From IMG/VR virus record IMGVR_UViG_3300001525_000609, positions 1-64,000 of that record: a stretch of DNA of 64,000 nt, one strand, 5' to 3'. The translations under genes were made by a program, and so were the position numbers. The stretch comes from a virus. Its lineage: Duplodnaviria > Caudoviricetes. The notes beneath the pieces were generated by a model. The model ran no database searches, had not been told where the DNA came from, and saw nothing but the letters and a program-made list of their open reading frames with translations. Within the stretch, counting starts at the first letter, position 1; each line of letters opens with the position of its first letter. This document shows positions 36,312 to 57,510 of the stretch, one piece after another.

Positions 36312-36667
36312 AAATATATCCGAATAGTTGAACGATTGCTCAAGTGTTGTCGGGGCGGTCTCTTAATCTTAGACAGAAGTGGTAATGTTGGTCGGTATAG
36401 GAAAAATAGAGTGCCCCTGTCCGTCCCGAGGACGGTTTTCAACACGTCTAATGTAACAAAAGCGGCATTACACGACCATTACAATGGATGTATCTTCCAA
36501 TACTGTTTATGCCCGAAATAATCCATGATATCAGTATACTGGTCACGATTTTTGTGTTTTAGGCTCTCCGAAACCAATAGAGCGCGATCGTACCCTCTTG
36601 CCCTAAATCGCCATTACGAAATTCGTAGAAAACTCTACGAAACCTCGCAAACAGTATTTAAAGAGCC

Positions 36668-36925
36668 TTACAAAATTACATTACCCTTACATATCCGATG
36701 TAATGCATATTTTTGTACAACTATTTATAGGGTTTAAATAGTCCCTATTTAAACCCATAGTATCTATTTCTAAGAATTACAGGAATTACATCATTTAAAA
36801 AGATTAGAAAAAAATAATGAAAAATAGAGGGATCGTGAGAAAACTCCCTCTTATACGCGCGTACACGCGCATGCGCGCACGCGCCTTCTAGTCTTTCCGA
36901 CGAAAATATGTAATTTTGTAATTTA
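36668..36925. repeat. AT-rich iteron element, copy 1
   Basis: Homologous to 54335-54560. Contains TTACAT-N5-ATGTAA, tandem AATTACA boxes, inverted TGTAATT boxes and a 12-bp hairpin at 36730-36756. Confidence 0.75.
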
Positions 36926-37591
36926 TACAACCTCGTTGTATATTTTTTTATAAGTCTTTCGCAATTGCTTATAAACTCAAACCTCGAATTAACCCCTGTT
37001 TAGCCTTACATTGAAATGTAACGCAATGTAATGCTGTCATTTTCGGCCCCTCTGTTCTCCGCCTCCGCCCGTGCTCGTGAAAATCCCCGATTTTGCCCTA
37101 CATTTCTTAGACCTCTGCTGCTTGCGTCTGTCCTCGTCGCCGCGAGTGCCGAACATCACGATCCCGGGATCGGACAGGGGGCGGCGACGGCACGCGACGG
37201 CACCTGCGACGCTCTTTTCCGTCATCGCTCCCTTTCTTGTTCACATGCGTGCATGTACGCAACCGCACGCTCCTGTGCCCATACTTGCGTAAGCTCGCGC
37301 ATGCGCACGTGCCCGAGCGCAGAGCGCACGAGGAACAGGCGGCTGCGTCGCAGCCGCTCCCCTGATAACGATTCCCCCAAAGGCGCACCGATCGGTGCGT
37401 CGCAGGGCGCAGGTGTGCACGCACGCGCATGTGCGTAGCCCTGTGTTCGCTTGAAATCTCCGCAGACCCATCTCCTTTCGCGTATAATGGACTTCACGCC
37501 TTGAAAGGTGTCCAAGGTCGTCTAAACAATCTTCGTGGCTTTTATGCCCCTTTCTGTGCGTCTTATCAAAGAACCTCTCGATAAGGCCGTC

Positions 37592-40152: not shown

Positions 40153-41630
40153 TTCTGTGTCTCCTTTGTCTTGTTTCTAAGGGGGTTCTAAAGGGTTTGT
40201 CATTGGTTTCTAGCGTCAGTTCTCCCAGCACACCGTGTACAGTCCGGGGCAGTCTATCAGCACCCTGTCGGCGCCGTCTTCCCTTGCCAGGTCTTCCTCC
40301 ACATCCAGGACGTCGTGGATTATCTCCTGTGCAGTCAGGAAGACCATGTCTGCGCCGTTGTAGTAGCTCCCCCTGCTGTACAGGCGGGCGATGGGCGCAG
40401 ACAACTCCGCCTTGTCGTCGTATCTTTCGGCGTCCCTGATGATATCGGCCAGCATCGCGGCGATAAGGTCGGGCCTCTCGGATTCGATTGTGTCTTTGCA
40501 CAGGTCGGGCCTGCATCTCAGTACGAACATCTTCATCTCTCCTTGTCGTTTTTAATCGGTTTCTAAGGGTGAAGCGGGGTTGACCCGCTTCTTATGTACC
40601 TGATTAGACTGATAGTTTTTATTTTTTACTATCAAATCTGCTGTACTGTATTACGCATCATCGGAGTCGGCATCCCAGATGACCTGGCATCCGTCGATGT
40701 CGAGGACGATCCCGGGGCAGTCCCTCTTCTCGGCCGCCGCGAGGATCTCGAAGACGATGTCCTCTGCGCTCCTCACGAGGAGCGTGCCGTAGGGGTACTC
40801 CGATCCGAGCGCGACATACTGCTGCGCGATGTCGTCGAGCCTCCTAAGGGCATAGTCGCGGGCGATCCTCATCGCCCTCTGGTTGTCGCCGTCCTCGCGG
40901 CGCTCGACCTCGTAGACGATGGTCTGCAGGCGGTCGATGAGCTTGCACACTGCCGTGGCAGCAGCCACGGCATCGTCGCCGTTGTACACGGCGTTGTCGC
41001 TGTAGTCTTGAATTCTGAACGTCATTTGATTCACTTCCGAAAGAAGATGCGAGGGGATTCCTCCCCTCAGGGTGTTCTCAGGCGAGCATCTCGCAGAGCA
41101 CGAGGAGCATGTTGCATGCCCCTTCGTCGTACTCGCTCAGGTCTTCCGTCCCGTTCGTAGGGCGGTCGCAGATTCCCTGCCCGACACGGGCGAGGACGCC
41201 TGCGGTGAGCTGGGGGCTCACGTCGGCCTCTTCGGTGACGAGACCGAAGATAAGGCTGTCGATGACGGCCCTGGCGCCGCGGATGTGCTCGGCAGTCCAG
41301 TCCGCGGGGAAGGCGTCGCGGTCTGAGACCGCGAGCCTCGCTGTCACGAGGTCGGCCATTTCGAGGTACTTCTGTCCGTTTGCGTTTGTCTTCATTTTTC
41401 AAACTCTCCTTTGTCTTGTTTCTAAGGCGTTTCTTAACGGGTTTCGGATGCATTTCGCATCCTCACAGTCTAGATAGTCGTTCCAGTATATATTTTTTAC
41501 TGAAAGATTTGGTTGAATGTATTACACAGGTACGATGCGATGCACCGTGCCTGTCGGCACGATCCCGGGCCCGGGATCGGGCACGCGGGGGGGGGGAACG
41601 GCTGACCCTTCGGGGTCAGCCGCCCGATCC

Positions 41631-44082: not shown

Positions 44083-45333
44083 TCAGAACACCTCCTTCAT
44101 GGCCGCCTGGTAGTCCCTGAGGGACTTGATGTAAGGGTTGCGCACCGTCTTATCCATCCCTTCCAGGATGGTGGCCAGTGTGTCCTTCGTGACCGCCGCC
44201 TTGAGGAGTGCGACCTCAAAGGCGAACGTCGTCCTGTCTCCCTTGGACATCCCTGCTATGTAGGGGTCCTTGGAGGCCAGGATATCGGCGAATGTCTTCC
44301 CGCCCCTGTAGGAGGGCACGTAATCCGTCAGCCCCTGCTTGATGCAGGAGTTGCGGAACTCCCTGATGAAGACGGCGACCTTCTCGGCCTCCTCCGGGGG
44401 TATCCCTGAGGCCTTGATGCAGGCCAGGGATATCTCATCCTCATAGTTGACCTCGACCACACAGAAGCGGTCAAGGGTGGACGCATCCAACCTGTTGGCT
44501 GTCCCGTACTCCTCGGTCGCGCCGCGTCCGTTGGTGTTGGCCGTGGCGATGATCCTCAGCTCCGGGTTGACCGGAACGACCCCACGGACAGGGACATCCA
44601 TGAGGTTGTTGGCGATCATGGCGTTCATGGGGATGAGCGCCTCCGGGAGCGACCTGTCGACCTCCTCAAGGAGGAGGAGGCCAGGCTCGGTGATCGCCGC
44701 GGTCACTTGGCTCTTGACCTCGTTCCCGTTGGCGTCCGCGTACCCCGTCACATCGCTCCTCATCTGGGGCGATGTGAGCATGAAGAGCTGCTTGTCCAGC
44801 TCCTTCGCGATCCTGACCGCCATCTCGGTCTTCCCCGTCCCTCTCGGGCCGACCAGGAGGACCTTCTTCCCCATGGAGACCAGGGCCTTGACCTGCTCGT
44901 AGGTCCTGGGCTTGATGTAGCCGTCGGCATCCGCCTCCGGCTTCTTGGGCTTGGGCCTCGGCTCCTTCGGAGCCGGGGGAACCTCTTCCTTTGGCTCCTC
45001 CTTTGGCTCCTCCTTGGGGGCTTGGGCCGGGCCTTCCGATGGAAGGTAGAAGGCCCTGTCCTCCTCGGCCAGCCTGTCCCAGTTGGCGATGATGCGCTCG
45101 GCCATGACCGTTATCCCGTGCCACCCTGCGGTGTACAGGGAGCGGTAGGCGGCGATCATCCCCGTGATGACCCTCGCATCGGGCTCAAGGCCCTTGGCCT
45201 TGAGCTGCTCCTCGACCGCTCCGGCGAGGCACGCGATGCGCGTGTCGTTGTCGATGCAGGCCTTGGCCTTGGGGTTGATGGTGATGTCGGCGGTCTTGGC
45301 GATTCTGTACATGTTGTCTGCGATGTAGGACAT
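44083..45333 (-). CDS. MoxR/CobS-like AAA+ ATPase
   Basis: Walker A GPRGTGKT, Walker B LLLLEEVD, IATANT, Arg finger LDASTLDRF. Confidence 0.9.
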   Translation of the reverse strand: MSYIADNMYRIAKTADITINPKAKACIDNDTRIACLAGAVEEQLKAKGLEPDARVITGMIAAYRSLYTAGWHGITVMAERIIANWDRLAEEDRAFYLPSEGPAQAPKEEPKEEPKEEVPPAPKEPRPKPKKPEADADGYIKPRTYEQVKALVSMGKKVLLVGPRGTGKTEMAVRIAKELDKQLFMLTSPQMRSDVTGYADANGNEVKSQVTAAITEPGLLLLEEVDRSLPEALIPMNAMIANNLMDVPVRGVVPVNPELRIIATANTNGRGATEEYGTANRLDASTLDRFCVVEVNYEDEISLACIKASGIPPEEAEKVAVFIREFRNSCIKQGLTDYVPSYRGGKTFADILASKDPYIAGMSKGDRTTFAFEVALLKAAVTKDTLATILEGMDKTVRNPYIKSLRDYQAAMKEVF

Positions 45334-45364
45334 TTTGGTACTCTCCTTTTTCGTGGTAAAAAGT

Positions 45365-45871
45365 TTAGTTGCCAGGAGTGGCGGGGGTGTCGGTGTTCTG
45401 CTGCTTGAGCTCATCCAGATAGTCGCGCGACCTAACAGGGTCGTGCGTCTGGAATCCGATGACGGGCTCAAGTCTGCTGGCGGCTTCGAGATCTGCGCCG
45501 TTCGGCAGTGATGCGAACAGGGCACGGACCTCGGTCTCCTTCGGCTTGAAGTTCTTCTCATACGCGATGGCGGACTGCTTTGCTAAGGCAGCCACGGCCT
45601 CGCGTGCTCCCGCATCCGACATCACAACATCGATGTCGTGCGTTGTCTTGGAGGTCCTCACGAATGTCCAGTTGGTCGACTCGACCGACTGGATGAGCTG
45701 GCCCGTAGCTTCATCACGGGCCTCCTCCTGTGACCATGCATGCATGAGCAATGCTTCATTGGCCAGCTTGAGCTGGCGGACTTGCTCTTCGAGATTCGCG
45801 ATCTCGGTGGCGTTCTTGTCCGCCATGTCGATTAGCAACTTGAACTTGGATACTTGTGGTAGTGATGCCAT
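45365..45871 (-). CDS. Coiled-coil hypothetical protein, first gene of the leftward arm
   Basis: AAGGAGG RBS; N-terminal heptad pattern. Confidence 0.6.
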   Translation of the reverse strand: MASLPQVSKFKLLIDMADKNATEIANLEEQVRQLKLANEALLMHAWSQEEARDEATGQLIQSVESTNWTFVRTSKTTHDIDVVMSDAGAREAVAALAKQSAIAYEKNFKPKETEVRALFASLPNGADLEAASRLEPVIGFQTHDPVRSRDYLDELKQQNTDTPATPGN

Positions 45872-46266
45872 TTATGTATGCCTCCTTGTGTGATCAGGGT
45901 CGGCGGCGATGATGATCGTCGCCGAGTTTGGTGGCGGTCGCATTCGACCGCGCTGGCGGTGATGGATCCGCGCGGTTGCGCGGATGATTTTATCCGAGGA
46001 CGGATCGCCAAGCCCACGAGGACGCCGGCGGCCATGAGGTCGCGGCCAGGTCGGAACGGTCGCGCACATCTCCGAGGGTGGTTGAAGCTCGGAGGTAGCA
46101 CGCGGCCGCGATGCTATCGGAGATTCGCGTCGGCCGATGATCGTCATCGCACATGATAGGATGGACGAGCTACGTCCCATGTGCTCGGAAGGATGAACTG
46201 CGCGATCGCTCAGAGGGGATTCGTCTCCCATGTAACCCGATGGGGGCCTGCGGCCGGGTCGCGGCC

Positions 46267-46491
46267 GCACGTCGTAACGTGCAACTGCTAGCGACTCGCT
46301 TAAGCCAGCCAGCGCATGGACTCAATCCATGAGCGACGGGATTAATCCAACCCATCCGATAACCCAACCCGTGGGTTGGATTGTCCGTAGCTGGACTAGT
46401 CCAGTCGCTCATGGGATTGGACTTATCCCATGAGCAACCGCGCGGATTCATGCCGAGACTAAACCCGTCCTGTTGGATTAGGGTTTAATCC
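46267..46491. other. Cluster of interlocking inverted repeats in the divergent non-coding region
   Basis: At least seven stems, three of them 11 bp long, plus a 14-bp perfect palindrome; see findings. Confidence 0.75.
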
Positions 46492-46876
46492 CGCATCAGA
46501 TACAATCCGACGCTTTACGTATCTAAGACTCCCGTAGGCGCCTTTTTGTCATGACGTTGTACACGTCACACGACTGGCCACTGTATGTCGCGGTTAGGGA
46601 TATATACCCTTCGGTCAATCGGCACAAAATGTATTACATATGCTACGGCCCCGGTATCCCTGCTCGGCCCGCGATCGCGCGCGTGGATCGGGCGCGTCCG
46701 CATACACGTCATGCGTGTGCAGTACCTGCCTATGTGACCGCGATACGGGCCTACCCCCGGGTATAGAAATGAGGGGGTCGATGTTCGTCACGGCTGTCAA
46801 CTCCTAATCTGTATACCGTCATACCTATATACTGTCAAACCCTCACCCGTTCTGAGCGCACAGCTCATGTGATAAC

Positions 46877-47623
46877 ATGGAATTCGAATGGACAGATGCG
46901 ATGGCGACCAAGACCGATGCGGCGAAGCTCTCTGCGATGCTCTCGGCCGTGTCGTCTCAGACCGACCGCGTGAACGTCGCCATCGGAGCCGACGGCTCTG
47001 TGACGGTGCGCGCGGTCTCCCCCGACCACGTCACGATGGTCGGGATCGATGCGGAAGCAGGCACGGTGATGGGTATTTGCTCCCCCGTGTCGTTCGAAGC
47101 GGACGTGAACGCATGGCTTGCCTTCCTCCGCAGGTGCAAAGGCGACGTCGCTATGCTCTGGCTCGGCTCGTCGGCGGTCCAGCTCAGATGCCGTGGCGTC
47201 AGCGCCGTCCTGCGTCTCGACCCTCCCGGCCCCGATGTGCGCATACCGTCTCTGAGCCTTGAGGACCAGTGCGTGTTCGACCCTGCCGTGCTGAAGGACA
47301 TGGCGGCCCTCGTGCCCAAGTCCAGCGTCGCGTACTGGCGCATGTCGCTCACGCCCTCGGGCCTGAACGTGTCCGTCCGCGACGATACGGGCACAGGCCC
47401 CGGCGCAGAGCTCGCAGCCGGCGACATGGACCTCTGCGACGTCCCCTCGGGGCAGGCCGAAGCATCGTTCCCCCGCGAGAGATGGACCGACGTGCTGAAG
47501 GCCCTTCCTTCCGGCGCGATCGGATTGGAGCTCGGCAACGACTATCCCTGCCGCGTGACGTTCGGCGGTGTCGGATGGAGCGGGCAGTGGATGTGCGCGC
47601 CCATCATAGAGTCGAGGCGATGA
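46877..47623 (+). CDS. pcn: PCNA-like DNA sliding clamp
   Basis: 248 aa with VSPDHVTMV, interdomain IPSL, LELGNDYPCRV and C-terminal MCAPIIE, matching the PCNA D.SHV.LV, L..DYP and LAP.I motifs. Confidence 0.85.
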   Translation: MEFEWTDAMATKTDAAKLSAMLSAVSSQTDRVNVAIGADGSVTVRAVSPDHVTMVGIDAEAGTVMGICSPVSFEADVNAWLAFLRRCKGDVAMLWLGSSAVQLRCRGVSAVLRLDPPGPDVRIPSLSLEDQCVFDPAVLKDMAALVPKSSVAYWRMSLTPSGLNVSVRDDTGTGPGAELAAGDMDLCDVPSGQAEASFPRERWTDVLKALPSGAIGLELGNDYPCRVTFGGVGWSGQWMCAPIIESRR

Positions 47624-47624
47624 C

Positions 47625-47846
47625 ATGAGAGGCGCGCAGGTGAGATGGTGCGAGCGCTGCGGGAAATGGTACAGGGCCGATGAGAGAGACCTCAGGACCT
47701 GCACCGTGTGCGGGCAGGTCCAGCTGGAGTACAGATGCTATCGTTGCGGTCGCAGGTGGACGCCGAAGAAGGAGTCGCCCAAGACGTGCCCTAAGTGCGG
47801 AAGCCCGTATTGGGACCGCGCTAGGGTGATGACCGATGAAGAATGA
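47625..47846 (+). CDS. Double zinc-ribbon protein
   Basis: CERC..CTVC and CYRC...PKTCPKCGSPYW. Confidence 0.75.
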   Translation: MRGAQVRWCERCGKWYRADERDLRTCTVCGQVQLEYRCYRCGRRWTPKKESPKTCPKCGSPYWDRARVMTDEE

Positions 47847-49270: not shown

Positions 49271-49531
49271 TTTAAATATCAGTCGGGACATATAAGGTAC
49301 GTCTTGGGACCTCTTGTCTTGTCGGGCGTCATTCACAGCGGGGCCTGCTCCCTTCTAGGGGGCGGCGGGCCCCGTCACCTCTTTTCATACCTGTCATAAT
49401 CGTTATATAGGGCGTTATCGATGTTAGTCCGCCTTCAGGTAAGGTCGGATCGCATCTGTTCCGGGTGCGATTGGGGTTCAAAGGCGGCCCCATTCGCGCC
49501 ATTTTTATATCCTCATACTGTTCGGCATGGC

Positions 49532-52500
49532 ATGACCGATGATAATCCGACTGATGACGAGCAGCTCAAAGAGCTGGACCCTGAAGACCCTAGGCCGAAG
49601 CAGACCTTCGACTCGCCTGAACCTCTGAAATCCGATGTTCAGACGCCCGAGCCGAAGACGCCGGAGCTTCCTCCAGAGCCTGCATCTGAATATAAGCCGA
49701 GAAAGCAGAACATCAGCGCGGCGGATGTGAATGAGGATGCATCATACGACAGCGATATGCACGATCGCGCACGCGAATCTCGTATGAAGGATGGTGACGA
49801 GGATGTTTCGGCTGCCGAAGCGGCGCTGGACCAGGAGCTGTCCAACAGCACGGATGAGCGCGTCAGCGACGACGACAAGGCTGAGGCGGCCGAACGTGCG
49901 GACGAGTACAACCGCAACCGCGCCAAGAAGGACGCGGACCAGGCCCTGAAAGAGCGCAGGAAGGCGAAGGCGTGGGACGGCATCGAAGCTGTCGCAACAA
50001 CTCTGCCCGGGATCGCGATGCAGACCACAGGCGATGTGCTGGGGAGCGTGAGGACGCTTGTGAACTCGTTCCTGTCGGGAGGGCCGATGACCATGTCCAG
50101 CCGGATCCTGGGCGAGGTCATGAGCGACACATCGGCCATGGAGAACCGCCTGAACACCCTCCATGAGCAGTACGGCATCTTGAGGGACTCCGACCCGCGC
50201 CTGACCGCAGACACTGTCAAAGGGCGCATGATGCGTGCAGCTACGAGAGAGGAGATGGAGGGTATAGCGTATGCCAACTCCAGCATCGATCTCATGCTCA
50301 GGACCCTTGGAGAGGACCCGTCGCAGATGAACGAAGCGTCCCTTCAGTCTGTGCAGAACGGCATCGACAGGGAGACTGCGAGACTCAATGAAGAGCTGCG
50401 CACAGGCAAGGACAAGGACGGGAACAAGCTCAATGCGCGTCAGAGACGCGTCAGGCAGGCGCAGCTCAGGCAGTACAACGAGGCCCTGACTGGGATAAAC
50501 AAGAAGGTCAACGAAGCCAAGAAGTATGCCCGTGAAGACTACGCCGATGCGAGGCAAGCCGATTCCCAGCACAGGAGATGGGAGCGCGAAGTGGCCGGCG
50601 TGCAGAGGGGGTTCGAACGCGAGCACAAGGCGTGGGAGAAGGAAGGCGCACAGGCGCAGAGGGATTTCGAGCGCGAGCACAAGGCGTGGGAGCGCGATAA
50701 GGCCGCTGCGGATAAGAAGTACAACAAGGACCTCAGCGACTGGCAGAAGCGTGAAGACGCCAGATGGGAGCAGAAGCGGTCGGACGACAGGTTCAATGCA
50801 GGCACGCCTGCCCAGCAGCGCGTATGGACTGCCTTGGGCCGTGATATCGACCTAGATGAAGAAGGCATCCCGACGGACAGTAGGCACTTGAACCGTCTGA
50901 CCCAGGTCGCGGCGGACCGCCTGAGGAGCATAGAAGGAAGCCTTCTGCCTGGTGAGAAGCCAGAGGACAATGAAGACTATCAGAGATGGCAGGCTGTGCT
51001 GAACCGCGTGTCGCAGGTCAGGGAGCAGAACAAGGCTCGGATGCCGCTGACCGACGAGCAGCGCGAGGCTCAGCGCATCAAAGAGGAGAAAGAGGCCAGA
51101 GCCGCTGCGGAAGCCAAGGCGCAGGAAGACAGGTACAATGCGGGATCGGATCCGCAGAAGCGCGTGTGGGACATCTCCGGCGACAGGACGATAGACCTGT
51201 ACGATGACGGCACGCCAGTAGACAGCAGGCACTTGGAGAGCCTGCGGAAGGCTGTGTCCGACAAGATCTTTGCTCGTGAGAAGGAGCTGAGGGATGTGGA
51301 CGCCGATCCTTCGAGCGACGAGGAGTATCGGAAACTGCAGGCCATCCATGGGCGCATCCAGGACAGACAGAAGTGGAACGCGGAGCAGAACCTGTCTCCC
51401 GAAGAGCGCGAGAACAGGCGCGCTAAAGCCGAAGCCGAAGCGAGGGCTGAAGAAGTCTACCGGAACAGCAACGCTGCTCAGCGCATCGTCAGAGACATGC
51501 TCGGGAAGAAGGACATCCCTCTGGACGAGAACGGCGTGACGCTGGACCATTCGTCTATCAACTCAGTCATCACCAAGACGAGAGCGTGGCTGAGCAACCC
51601 CGCCAATGCCGATTCGGAGGACAGGCCCGTGGTTGAGAAGATCCTGGACGCGTACCGTCATACTGCTCTGACCAACAAGAACCTGGAGAAGGAGTTCTAC
51701 GATCAAGTATCTACTCTCTCTGATGGCCTGGTGAACAATAGCAGGAACTCGCTCAATGCGATAGTCAACGAATGCAGGAACGGTCTCGCAGACTGGTATA
51801 AGGAGCATGGCATCGACCCGAGCACATACCCTACGCCTGCCGAGGTCGGGGAAGATGCATATGCGGAGTTCTATTCTCTTTTCACTCGCAGAGCTGCCGC
51901 AGTCAACGGGCTCGCATATCACGAAGCTATGAATAGGATCCACCAGGGCGCAGAGTCGATGGGGTTGAACAGCGATGCCGTCGAGCGCATCGGCATGACC
52001 CTCAAGACTCTCCAGATCAAGGACCACGAAGACCGTATGAATAGGGGGATGAAACCTGATACGATATCGGACTTCTCCAACGCAGTCAGAGGATTCAACA
52101 TCATATTCAGTAAAAAAAGCCAGAACATAAGAGATGAGCTTCAAGCAAAGATGGATCAGATCGACGAGCAGTTGCGCGATATGCACTACCGCGAATCGAA
52201 GGGCACGATATCATACGAGGAGTTCAGCGAACTGAAGATCCGGCTGAATCGTCAGAAGAACGGCTTGCAGCGCATAATAAACGGTTGTGAGAGGATGCCT
52301 GATGTCCTGAAACCTGCGCAAGTGGCGGCCTATAAGAAGAACATGAACATCATCGGCCTAAAGCTAAACAGGCTGGGCCTCGGCAACGGTTCAGGTGGAT
52401 ACAAAAGAGTCAAGGAGTCTGCCGAACCCACTTCTAAGAAGAAGCCTGAGCTGGACTTCGGAGACAGAGGCAACCCGCTCCCGCCGCCGGCGGTTCCCGA

Positions 52501-54259
52501 AGGGTCTGTACATTCTGAAGGAGACGGGGGATCGCTTTCCGATATGCAGCGGCTTGCAAAGGAGATGAACACGTATTCGGCAAACGGGGAGCTCAGCCCG
52601 GATTTTGTGTATGAGACGATGTTGAAATTGGCCAATTCGGTCCGTGCCGGTGAGCCCATCGATGATGACGCTCTCACGAAGATATACACTAATCTGTATG
52701 ATAGTGTGGATGATAAGTCCAAGCTGGAGCTTCAGAGCATAATCGGTGTCCCCGAACAGATAAATGGATTCTTCGACAAGATCAGGCCTGAGAAACAAGA
52801 CGAAGATCAGAGGCATGAGGTCGAAGACGAAGGCCAGGACGAATCTGATGAAGCATATCAGGATTTAGATAGCGGAAACCCTAACAGCAGATACAGCAAA
52901 GATCTCCGCAGTTTCAAGAACAAGATCGCTCAGATGGACAGGGGTGGCGCAGAGAATCAGAAAAAGCAGGTAATGAGCCAGCTCAAGAGGTCGATTGCCG
53001 ATAAGAATTCGAGCATGGAGGATATAGAGAAATATTATCAGAAGCTCAGGATGTTGGAAGATTGGGAGTCTGAGCCTAAGCACAAGGGGGAGATATTCAC
53101 CAACGAGGAGAGGGCAGAGCTGGCTAAGATGTCAGAAATCGGCATCGACAAATATGTGTATCAACAGCAAGGCGCACTTGCAGATGAGGCATTGGCTGAA
53201 GAGCTGAAGAAGAACGAGACGTTCAGGCTCCAACTGGCCACATCTAACAAAGCTCTTGAGGATGCCAAGAAAGCCCTTGAGGATACCAAGAAAGCCCAGG
53301 AGGAAATGAAGCGGGAGATCGCCAATCTGAAGAGTGAATTGAACAGTGGTACACATGCTATCCCTCTTACACCCCCTGCATCCTCTGCGTCTCCTGCCCC
53401 CCTCCTCGTAGATTCTGATATGGATGCTTTGAAAAATGAAAGGAAAAAGAAACGTGAGGAATATCTGAACAGCGAAGGGCTCAATAAAGATGCAAAGGCG
53501 TATGTACAGCAATTGGAGAAATATCATCGCGGAAGCGCCGATTTCAATGAGAATCTCAGAACGATGCTGAATACCAAGCTTGCAAGCGGCCCTTTGGATA
53601 CAGACCTCCATCCCGAGATGAGAAAGTTCGTTTCAGATATGGTGAATGACTTGGTCGGTGTTTTCAGCGAAAAGGACCCTCAGAAAGCAAGAGAATCGAT
53701 CGATAAGCTGCTGGTGGAAGCTGGTCCTAAAGAGGCTCATGGCTCTTTATACGGGGGCATTCCCAGAACCGTATCGAGCGATAGCCGGAAGGAGATAGAC
53801 GGCACCTTGTTCGACTTGAGCAACTTCCTGCAGAACATGAATATCTGCTCGGCTAAGACTGCGAGAGAAAAGAAAGAGAAAAGAAAAGAGACGAAGAAAG
53901 AGCCCAAACTCATGCACTCCAATATCGACACGGTGCTTCCTGAAGGCCCGATCCGCGAGGCTTTCAAGAAGATCGATGATGCCAGATCGATAAAAGGCTT
54001 TGAAAGTCGCAAGAACTTCTTCGAGAATCTGTCAGAAGAATTGACGAATGAGGGAATTAATGAAGACAGGAATGGCAATCAGATGACGTATAGCTATACC
54101 AGTCTTGATAATGTGCAGGGCAGGTTCCTGAGAGCGTTGTACAACACGCTGAATAATGATAAAAAATATGGCCCATATGAGAATGACAAGGGTGAAGACG
54201 ATGAGGATCTGATTGAATTGGCCAACCTATTATACGATGAATTCAACAAAAAGATGTAA
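49532..54259 (+). CDS. Very large (1575 aa) charged coiled-coil protein with internal repeats; putative virion-internal protein
   Basis: Uninterrupted ORF after TATA-like TTTTTATA (49502). Contains tandem EREHKAWE repeats and three longer repeats. Confidence 0.6.
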   Translation: MTDDNPTDDEQLKELDPEDPRPKQTFDSPEPLKSDVQTPEPKTPELPPEPASEYKPRKQNISAADVNEDASYDSDMHDRARESRMKDGDEDVSAAEAALDQELSNSTDERVSDDDKAEAAERADEYNRNRAKKDADQALKERRKAKAWDGIEAVATTLPGIAMQTTGDVLGSVRTLVNSFLSGGPMTMSSRILGEVMSDTSAMENRLNTLHEQYGILRDSDPRLTADTVKGRMMRAATREEMEGIAYANSSIDLMLRTLGEDPSQMNEASLQSVQNGIDRETARLNEELRTGKDKDGNKLNARQRRVRQAQLRQYNEALTGINKKVNEAKKYAREDYADARQADSQHRRWEREVAGVQRGFEREHKAWEKEGAQAQRDFEREHKAWERDKAAADKKYNKDLSDWQKREDARWEQKRSDDRFNAGTPAQQRVWTALGRDIDLDEEGIPTDSRHLNRLTQVAADRLRSIEGSLLPGEKPEDNEDYQRWQAVLNRVSQVREQNKARMPLTDEQREAQRIKEEKEARAAAEAKAQEDRYNAGSDPQKRVWDISGDRTIDLYDDGTPVDSRHLESLRKAVSDKIFAREKELRDVDADPSSDEEYRKLQAIHGRIQDRQKWNAEQNLSPEERENRRAKAEAEARAEEVYRNSNAAQRIVRDMLGKKDIPLDENGVTLDHSSINSVITKTRAWLSNPANADSEDRPVVEKILDAYRHTALTNKNLEKEFYDQVSTLSDGLVNNSRNSLNAIVNECRNGLADWYKEHGIDPSTYPTPAEVGEDAYAEFYSLFTRRAAAVNGLAYHEAMNRIHQGAESMGLNSDAVERIGMTLKTLQIKDHEDRMNRGMKPDTISDFSNAVRGFNIIFSKKSQNIRDELQAKMDQIDEQLRDMHYRESKGTISYEEFSELKIRLNRQKNGLQRIINGCERMPDVLKPAQVAAYKKNMNIIGLKLNRLGLGNGSGGYKRVKESAEPTSKKKPELDFGDRGNPLPPPAVPEGSVHSEGDGGSLSDMQRLAKEMNTYSANGELSPDFVYETMLKLANSVRAGEPIDDDALTKIYTNLYDSVDDKSKLELQSIIGVPEQINGFFDKIRPEKQDEDQRHEVEDEGQDESDEAYQDLDSGNPNSRYSKDLRSFKNKIAQMDRGGAENQKKQVMSQLKRSIADKNSSMEDIEKYYQKLRMLEDWESEPKHKGEIFTNEERAELAKMSEIGIDKYVYQQQGALADEALAEELKKNETFRLQLATSNKALEDAKKALEDTKKAQEEMKREIANLKSELNSGTHAIPLTPPASSASPAPLLVDSDMDALKNERKKKREEYLNSEGLNKDAKAYVQQLEKYHRGSADFNENLRTMLNTKLASGPLDTDLHPEMRKFVSDMVNDLVGVFSEKDPQKARESIDKLLVEAGPKEAHGSLYGGIPRTVSSDSRKEIDGTLFDLSNFLQNMNICSAKTAREKKEKRKETKKEPKLMHSNIDTVLPEGPIREAFKKIDDARSIKGFESRKNFFENLSEELTNEGINEDRNGNQMTYSYTSLDNVQGRFLRALYNTLNNDKKYGPYENDKGEDDEDLIELANLLYDEFNKKM

Positions 54260-54334
54260 CGATATCTATATATCGGTTGCAATCATGCAACCGATATTCT
54301 TTCCTTAGACTCTAATTTAAGAATACCTTAATCA

Positions 54335-54560
54335 TTACAAAATTACATTGCATTACATTTTCGATGTAACGCAGGTTTTTGTACAATCTTATATAGTATT
54401 TATAAAGTCCCTATATAAGGAATCCTATACAAATCTAAGAATTACATGAATTACATCATTTCAAAACTTTTAGAAAAAAATGAAGGGGAGAGCTTGTGCA
54501 AAGAATTTCTCATTTTTTTAGAACTTTATAGGAAAACATGTAATTCATGTAATTTTGTAA
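54335..54560. repeat. AT-rich iteron element, copy 2
   Basis: Direct-repeat homologue of 36668-36925. Confidence 0.75.
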
Positions 54561-54670
54561 GGCAGTACAATCTGTCATTTATATACACGAGTCCATCAAT
54601 GAACAATAAGATGCATTGGTTGGATCGCCATTCGGGAAAATTACTATAACGCCCGATCCGATGCTCTATC

Positions 54671-57288: not shown

Positions 57289-57510
57289 TAGGATGGAGAG
57301 TATGAGTATTCATCACCACTCGACAATATCTATAATCATTTCATAGTATAATTAATTATCGTCATACCATCGAGTATAGTATTGTTTTGCATTACAAATT
57401 ACATAATTACATAGCTTTATCAAACATTTTAGAAAATCAAAAACAGTTTATATCAGATTCGACATAGACTGTTCAGATGCGATTCGGACGGTGTTAACCT
57501 GCAAAAGCCC

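Follow-up and report, generated by a model that had tools for sequence, protein, structure and literature searches.

A hypervariable, palindrome-rich repeat array as a candidate operator or origin between the divergent early operons of a probable archaeal tailed virus

Between the divergent early operons of an uncultured tailed virus, probably archaeal and probably hosted by Methanomassiliicoccales, lies a stretch dense in mutually exclusive hairpins (46267-46491) that we read, with a probability of roughly 0.55, as a DNA-level multi-site protein-binding array: an operator, a replication origin, or both. The array is non-coding and unique in the genome, and both its position and its general character are conserved, with the GGATT core kept across lineages as individual hairpins come and go. 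In the mechanism we propose, the stretch would be the hypervariable core of a conserved control region and would work as DNA. A sequence-specific, probably dimeric, DNA-binding protein would occupy it, reading GGATT-type half-sites arranged as 10-11-bp palindromes and tandem pentads, and would also use a lineage-specific iteron of ~14 nt, of which there are two direct copies and an inverted one. Occupancy would control both early operons, the PCNA-led arm and the leftward arm, with the array acting as an operator or roadblock beside a central promoter, as a replication origin, or as both. That a protein binds here, which protein it is and what its binding does are points that we infer.

The control region and its gene arms

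The window, the whole stretch of DNA analysed, is the first 64 kb of one 82,622-bp IMG/VR virus record (linear; 98% complete by CheckV). The nearest annotated virus is vir335 (Caudoviricetes sp., BK063680.1), whose predicted host is Methanomassiliicoccales and whose helicase is 47% identical to that of the window virus, with 75% of the length covered. The two are alike in genome size (83 kb for vir335) and in carrying a giant ORF (2339 aa in vir335), but they differ in gene order, and no PCNA homologue is detectable in vir335. The preliminary description had placed the hairpins in a non-coding gap of about 1 kb between divergent arms, upstream of PCNA, and both points hold: the gap measures 1005 nt and has no conserved ORF, and a four-sequence profile of the gene that follows, for which a Pfam search gave no hit, matches archaeal PCNA structures over its full length (PDB 3hi8, E 4.6e-14). 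The main features of the region are as follows.

45365-45871, minus strand: first gene of the minus arm (168 aa; Shine-Dalgarno AAGGAGG; no Pfam family)
45872-46876: 1005-nt non-coding control region separating the divergent early arms
45897-45990: three conserved hairpins, their pairing 100% kept in the closest relative, L001
46057-46108: conserved hairpin, element A, CGCGCACATCTC...GGTAGCACGCG
46315-46491: core array, with 12 GGAYT/ARTCC half-sites and a 13th at 46504
46520-46572: conserved box TCTAAGAsTCCCGTAG, T5 run and hairpin TGACGT..ACGTCA
46598-46638: central TATA box with conserved flank GGGATATATACCCTTCGG, then ATGTATTACA
46741-46778: element CGCGATACGGG...GGGGGT, present in recognisable form in all related gaps examined
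46824-46832, plus strand: proximal TATA box CCTATATAC, ~45 nt upstream of the PCNA start
46877-47623, plus strand: PCNA homologue (248 aa), first gene of the plus arm

Small ORFs within the gap were considered and rejected, since none is kept in L001 and the substitutions between the two gaps show no codon-phase bias.

The array stands at the head of the plus arm, which further right encodes a giant 1612-aa ORF, a ParB-methylase, a VapE-like helicase, an SNF2 helicase and a YqaJ exonuclease; with PCNA in front, this gene content marks the arm as a replication/recombination module. On the other side, atlas look-alikes of the 168-aa protein provide leads only, to phage DUF7307/Gam-like proteins, so that it is not an evident reader of DNA sequence, and beyond it the minus arm holds an AAA_5 ATPase and a DUF7192 protein. 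For the ATPase, the longest ORF (44083-45561, minus strand) overlaps the 168-aa gene by ~200 nt; its alignment with the L001 homologue begins at 45333. This is therefore probably the true start, and ORF calling would account for the overlap. Directly after PCNA (47625-47846) comes a small zinc-ribbon protein (68-100 aa, with hints of DUF7129/DUF7130/Zn_ribbon_8), which holds the same place in L001, L003 and L167, while L009, L010, L011, L168 and L169 have similar-sized small genes in this slot; it could be a conserved partner of the control region that binds nucleic acid. The giant ORF (49421-54259) has no Pfam or PHROG hit, and all relatives with a contig long enough to show it (L001, L002, L009, L010, L011 and L168) have, after PCNA and a few small genes, an ORF of >780 to ~1750 aa.

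An exhaustive search with a PCNA protein profile, followed by contig look-ups, yielded nine further lineages (L001, L002, L003, L009, L010, L011/12, L167, L168 and L169), with PCNA 86% identical to that of the window in L001 and down to ~27% in the most distant; L007 and L008 are identical to L001 and add nothing. Where a contig extends upstream of PCNA the layout is kept, with divergent arms separated by a gap of 0.5-1.1 kb and with PCNA first in the plus arm, small genes next and then, if the contig is long enough, the giant ORF; the position of the first minus-arm gene is not conserved among the relatives. The gaps also share an order of elements, from left to right: a hairpin/palindrome zone; an AGAsTCCCGT box with T-run and hairpin; a TATA box with flank CCCTTCG; GATACGGG...GGGGGT; and a proximal TATA box. 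The central TATA flank ATATATACCCTTCG is identical even in the distant L010. PCNA-profile searches of the viral, metagenome and genome contig collections confirmed no relative, a scan of viral and metagenome collections for the conserved 17-mer CGCGYACATCTCSRAGG returned chance hits only, and blastn and tblastn with the region and with PCNA found no match in a phage collection. One hit to the 17-mer, L163, also carries GGTAGC and was set aside as unrelated high-GC DNA, coding by eye, with no homologue of PCNA or of the 168-aa protein.

Two of the promoter-proximal elements recur in a recognisable form. In all related gaps examined (L001, 9841-9885; L002, 2655-2695; L009, L010, L011 and L167), the sequence CG(C/T)(G/T)ATACGGG with its G-run (GGGGGT) falls between the central TATA box and the proximal one, and it is kept even at ~30% PCNA identity. 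The central TATA box, for its part, shares its geometry with a second site in the window: at both 41487-41526 and 46601-46638, TATATA(T/C) is followed after 21-23 nt by an identical 11-mer, AATGTATTACA, which suggests a shared promoter or regulator module.

Repeats and competing hairpins of the array

Every hairpin claimed for the stretch by the preliminary description was recovered, position for position. Together with the repeats that compose them, they are:

46267-46282: inverted repeat (hairpin) GCACGT-CGTA-ACGTGC
46315-46331: inverted repeat CATGGA/TCCATG
46324-46337, plus strand: iteron copy 1, AATCCATGAGCGAC
46327-46414: large imperfect palindrome, 88 nt, with 23-nt arms matching at 87%
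46327-46337 with 46404-46414: long-range inverted repeat
46344-46382: 11-bp inverted repeat
46364-46379: inverted repeat CCAACCC/GGGTTGG
46391-46404: perfect 14-bp palindrome
46404-46417, minus strand: iteron copy 2, GTCGCTCATGGGAT, inverted
46407-46435: 11-bp inverted repeat
46425-46438, plus strand: iteron copy 3, ATCCCATGAGCAAC
46436-46448: anchor AACCGCGCGGATT, invariant in the window, L001 and L002
46460-46487 and 46475-46491: inverted repeats

The stretch is built from repeats of the half-site GGAYT/ARTCC. A dyad GGAYT..ARTCC had been reported to recur five times; four occurrences are exact (at 46318, 46339, 46393 and 46475, with spacers of 1, 0, 0 and 7), and the fifth is only approximate (GGGAT..ATCCC at 46412). 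Half-sites form close palindromes (GGACTcAATCC, GGATTAATCC and GGACTAGTCC) as well as tandem pentads of the GGAYT/GGGTT family (GGGTTGGATT and GGATTGGACT), and reach 13 copies per 250 nt against 0.93 expected (P ~3e-11), the second-densest 250-nt window of the 82.6-kb genome having 5. All three close palindromes of the form GGAYT(N0-1)ARTCC in the genome fall within the core array, and GGATTGTCC, GGGTTGGATT and AACCGCGCGG are likewise found only there. As these motifs occur nowhere else in the genome, the array constitutes one unique cis element and not part of a dispersed regulon.

The hairpins are interdependent, being made from only two repeat families, the pentads and the 14-nt iteron. Iteron copy 2, which is inverted, can pair with either copy 1 or copy 3, and hence the hairpins compete. 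Taken out to 23 nt (87%; 46327-46349 with 46392-46414), the long-range repeat gives the large palindrome, whose centre is CCCGTGGG (46368-46375); nested within it is the 11-bp hairpin 46344-46382, whose left arm overlaps the inner end of the palindrome's left arm. The AACCGCGCGGATT anchor has an inverted copy outside the array, at 45962-45979 (18 nt, 94%). A 13-nt iteron-like copy beside the PCNA start (46863-46875) was discarded, as it does not exceed chance by a rough estimate.

Folding calculations bear out the competition that had been claimed, with mutually exclusive helices that are nearly isoenergetic in silico. The local and long-range hairpin sets come to -62.4 and -59.2 kcal/mol on the plus strand and to -64.5 and -70.5 on the minus strand, so that competing foldings differ by at most 3 kcal/mol (plus) or 6 kcal/mol (minus), lying 1.5-8 kcal/mol off the minimum free energy. 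Against dinucleotide shuffles, RNAfold gives z-scores of -6.7 (plus strand) and -8.6 (minus strand); among 826 200-nt windows genome-wide, 46301-46500 on the minus strand is the most extreme GC-adjusted fold, and its plus strand ranks fourth. Mutual exclusivity of this kind is largely, in our view, a by-product of short motifs placed in both orientations, and the array illustrates how one such motif can mimic an RNA switch.

Turnover and conservation among relatives

Individual stems of the array do not persist. When the stems of 46267-46491 were compared with L001, covariation did not rise above controls: there was one double change, 233 of 500 shuffles did as well, and slid controls scored equal or higher, in a test whose power is low with a single alignable relative. 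Pairing is preserved in only about half of the alignable L001 cells. At the place aligned to the 46267 hairpin, L001 has GTGCTGT-CGTA-ACAGCAC, the loop being kept and the arms replaced. By eye, window and L001 align at ~55-60% in the core against 80-87% in the flanks; judged from these alignments, the core is hypervariable between its flanks, in the pattern of a specificity determinant.

What is kept is the kind of element and its place. In the 300 nt to the left of the central TATA box, dyad-symmetry density is maintained at z-scores of -5 to -8.5 on both strands in the window, L001, L002 and L010, and more weakly in L003, L009 and L011. Nested long palindromes analogous to 46327-46414 recur in L001, L002 and L010, ending 85-110 nt to the left of the conserved central TATA box. 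GGATT is the most enriched pentamer both in the window (9 against 0.6 expected) and in L001 (7 against 0.3); the L167 gap has 7 copies in 945 nt against 0.2 per kb elsewhere, and 5 copies are packed into 45 nt of the L168 gap as ACGAATCC/CACGGATTG repeats, with weaker enrichment in the gaps of L010 and L011. The iterons are related across lineages, reading CATGAGCGAC in the window, CATGACAAC in L001 (where the related iteron CATGACAACCG is present in 3-4 copies) and GGTTGWCA in L002. GGATT has been retained although the pairings have not, which favours sequence-specific recognition over any one fold. The preliminary description had offered a multi-site protein-binding array as one of several possibilities, and the combination of a shared half-site, lineage-specific iterons and hairpins that turn over leads us to favour it.

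Three observations sit less comfortably with a protein-binding array. The half-sites are spaced variably (0, 1, 5 and 7), a spread that one rigid dimer would not accommodate; the long-range arms in the relatives, at 13-30 bp, exceed what short operators need; and other hairpins of the gap keep their pairing through compensatory changes. These last changes, between 45897 and 46108, speak for selection on base pairing itself somewhere in the region.

Operator, origin or structured RNA

As an operator, the array would resemble arrangements in which several sites sharing one half-site lie between divergent promoters, and this is what the gap contains. Lambda OR/OL, the F55 ribbon-helix-helix sites of SSV1 and the heptads of the omega repressor all combine palindromic and tandem half-sites at divergent promoters, the heptads in arrow-arrow and arrow-inverted-arrow arrangements, and the array is also like immunity regions in being hypervariable between close relatives. 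It is unlike known operators in having many more sites, in ending ~110 nt short of the central TATA box, and in lacking a recognisable repressor or integrase alongside. The flanking genes have no DNA-binding Pfam domain, no binding protein for the array was identified, and atlas look-alikes of a 129-aa neighbour protein gave nothing usable. A role in a life-cycle decision, as first suggested, is unsupported, since a search of the genome found no tyrosine integrase (Phage_integrase) and no repressor was recognised. Operator and origin readings are not separable here and may coincide, HSV oriL and the baculovirus hr elements being cases in which both roles are combined.

That the array is a replication origin specifically, which falls within the probability given above and does not add to it, we regard as rather unlikely. 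In this form of the protein-binding reading, a viral initiator, for example the VapE-like primase-helicase, would bind the iterons and the palindrome, and extrusion of a cruciform or hairpin would aid opening. The three 14-nt iterons, beside 13 pentads, match the three or more repeats of ~10-22 bp usual for iteron origins; direct and inverted iterons accompany an 88-nt palindrome centred on the conserved CCCGTGGG; the array heads the replication gene arm at the point where the arms diverge, close to the cumulative GC-skew minimum (44-45 kb); and a hypervariable core is what origin-initiator specificity would be expected to produce. Against this, the skew is fully confounded with gene direction, the gap has no adjoining AT-rich unwinding element (lowest 40-nt GC 0.42-0.47), the helicase gene is 11 kb away with an ATTACA cluster of its own upstream, and AT-rich TTACA-iteron elements elsewhere look more origin-like. 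The earlier proposal of a replication start is thus favoured by iterons, palindrome and a nearby skew minimum, and disfavoured by the missing AT-rich element and by the better-looking AT-rich iteron candidates.

Comparison with known origins is similarly mixed. In HSV, divergent replication genes flank oriL, a palindrome of 144 bp; HSV oriL/oriS and the baculovirus hr regions are palindrome arrays, set between early or replication genes that diverge, with the function of origin and/or enhancer. Like the array, they are large imperfect palindromes built from repeated short boxes and, by analogy, may form alternative hairpins; unlike them, the array has a GC-rich centre (CCCGTGGG) rather than an AT-rich one, and the viruses and their proteins are unrelated. 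Iteron origins (lambda ori, P4 ori/crr with its alpha primase-helicase, and SaPI ori beside a VapE-like Rep) share with the array short direct and inverted repeats of a lineage-specific sequence, and the window virus also encodes a VapE-like helicase, but the array has no adjoining AT-rich region, the helicase gene lies 11 kb off and other AT-rich iterons exist in the genome. Archaeal chromosomal origins have ORB/mini-ORB repeats flanking a DUE beside orc1/cdc6. The array may recall these in its dyad repeat, CC-GT-GG core and nearby G-runs, and departs from them in that no Cdc6/Orc1 (Cdc6_C) was found in the genome and no AT-rich DUE in the gap. A telomere-resolution site of the N15 telRL type finds no support, as no protelomerase (PF16684) match was obtained in the genome at E <= 0.1.

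Two AT-rich elements, colinear and diverged (36650-37050 and 54260-54600; GC 0.28-0.40), bracket the high-GC early module (37-52 kb), each having three direct ATTACA/TTACA copies, internal TATA boxes and three inverted TGTAAT copies, and a third ATTACA triplet lies at 57391-57406, just upstream of the gene for the VapE-like helicase. They resemble classical origins, or strong regulated promoters, more closely than the array does.

A structured RNA is the other explanation to be weighed, and we consider it possible, if on the unlikely side. The array would then belong to a hairpin-rich leader of ~700 nt on the leftward operon, or to a separate non-coding RNA, with a transcript starting from the central promoter at ~46601 and with foldings that tune stability, processing or read-through; in a variant, GGAUU could be an RNA-protein contact. 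On the minus strand the central TATA flank reads CCGAAGGG-TATATAT, which resembles a BRE plus TATA for leftward firing, and from the 168-aa gene up to 46600 there is no further canonical TATA hexamer; if the promoter fires leftward, all gap hairpins and the array would fall in a ~700-nt minus-arm leader. The same promoter also fits rightward firing, with TATATAC followed after 21 nt by ATGTATTACA, a geometry seen again at 41487/41517. The extreme fold z-scores, most extreme on the minus strand, and the 3-6 kcal/mol that separate alternative states would suit an RNA, as would the loop of the 46267 hairpin, which on the minus strand is UACG and is kept in L001.

The flanks supply the best evidence for selected secondary structure in the gap. 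The hairpins at 45897-45990 and 46057-46108 keep 94-100% of their pairing, with five double changes each against 0-2 in slid controls. In the first group (slid controls 0-1), four of the five compensatory changes fall in one 7-bp stem (45934-45951), and in the second, element A, the closing stem covaries among the window, L001 and L002, with 5 of 18 pairs double-changed (a result equalled by 1 of 500 shuffles) and pairing kept at 94% in the three lineages. Two further hairpins, that at 46267 and that at 46552-46568 (TGACGT..ACGTCA, GGCA/TGCC in L001), have also been altered in both arms. By contrast, the stems of 46267-46491 are neither conserved nor covarying in the closest relative; a hypervariable core between conserved flanks is unusual for a functional RNA fold, and what is conserved across lineages is the GGATT motif, not base pairs. 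Although the minus strand has the better z-score in four of seven lineages, no consistent strand preference emerges, and wobble pairs are not in excess (G.T against A.C mismatches, 10 vs 10 and 11 vs 8). Rfam provided no match to the array: the search of the window returned a tRNA-Gln only, and a second search MIR405 only, scoring 22 bits where the threshold is 102 (E 0.57).

The narrower proposal, closest to the two-state RNA of the preliminary description, is that the gap yields a long viral RNA (a leader of ~0.7 kb or a non-coding RNA) whose fast-evolving core would alternate between foldings in which iteron copy 2 pairs with copy 1 or with copy 3, possibly when a GGAUU-reading protein binds. 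We judge such a switch to be distinctly improbable: the checks made on it gave no Rfam family for 46267-46491, pairing changes against L001 that do not exceed controls, and no steady strand preference. If it were true, it would be an RNA switch gating an early operon of an archaeal virus, with no counterpart in Rfam.

Least likely is that the stretch has no dedicated function and that palindromes merely accumulate, by template switching in quasi-palindromes or local inverted duplication, in a long promoter-bearing spacer: single hairpins do turn over fast, and template-switch repair can yield two-sided changes without selection, but the same property recurs at the same position in lineages whose PCNA is only 31-46% identical, the window, L001, L167 and L168 share an enrichment of GGATT that is weaker in L010 and L011, and invariant anchors (AACCGCGCGGATT and GGATTGTCC) lie inside the array.

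To our knowledge, no origin, operator or regulatory RNA has been mapped in viruses of the gut and rumen methanogens of the Methanomassiliicoccales. For one such virus group, the region is a well-delimited, conserved and concrete candidate for the principal control region, with a defined motif, the GGATT half-sites and lineage-specific iterons, that could be used for footprinting, pull-down or a replication assay.

Two tetranucleotides behave unusually in the hairpin arrays of the window, L001, L003, L010 and L011. CTAG is nearly missing from these virus loci, yet it occurs 7 times in arrays against 0.5 expected (seven lineages), and CATG is enriched 2-3 times in four arrays, often at a hairpin base (CATGG...CCATG); these may be methylation or restriction-related sites, or part of a binding motif.
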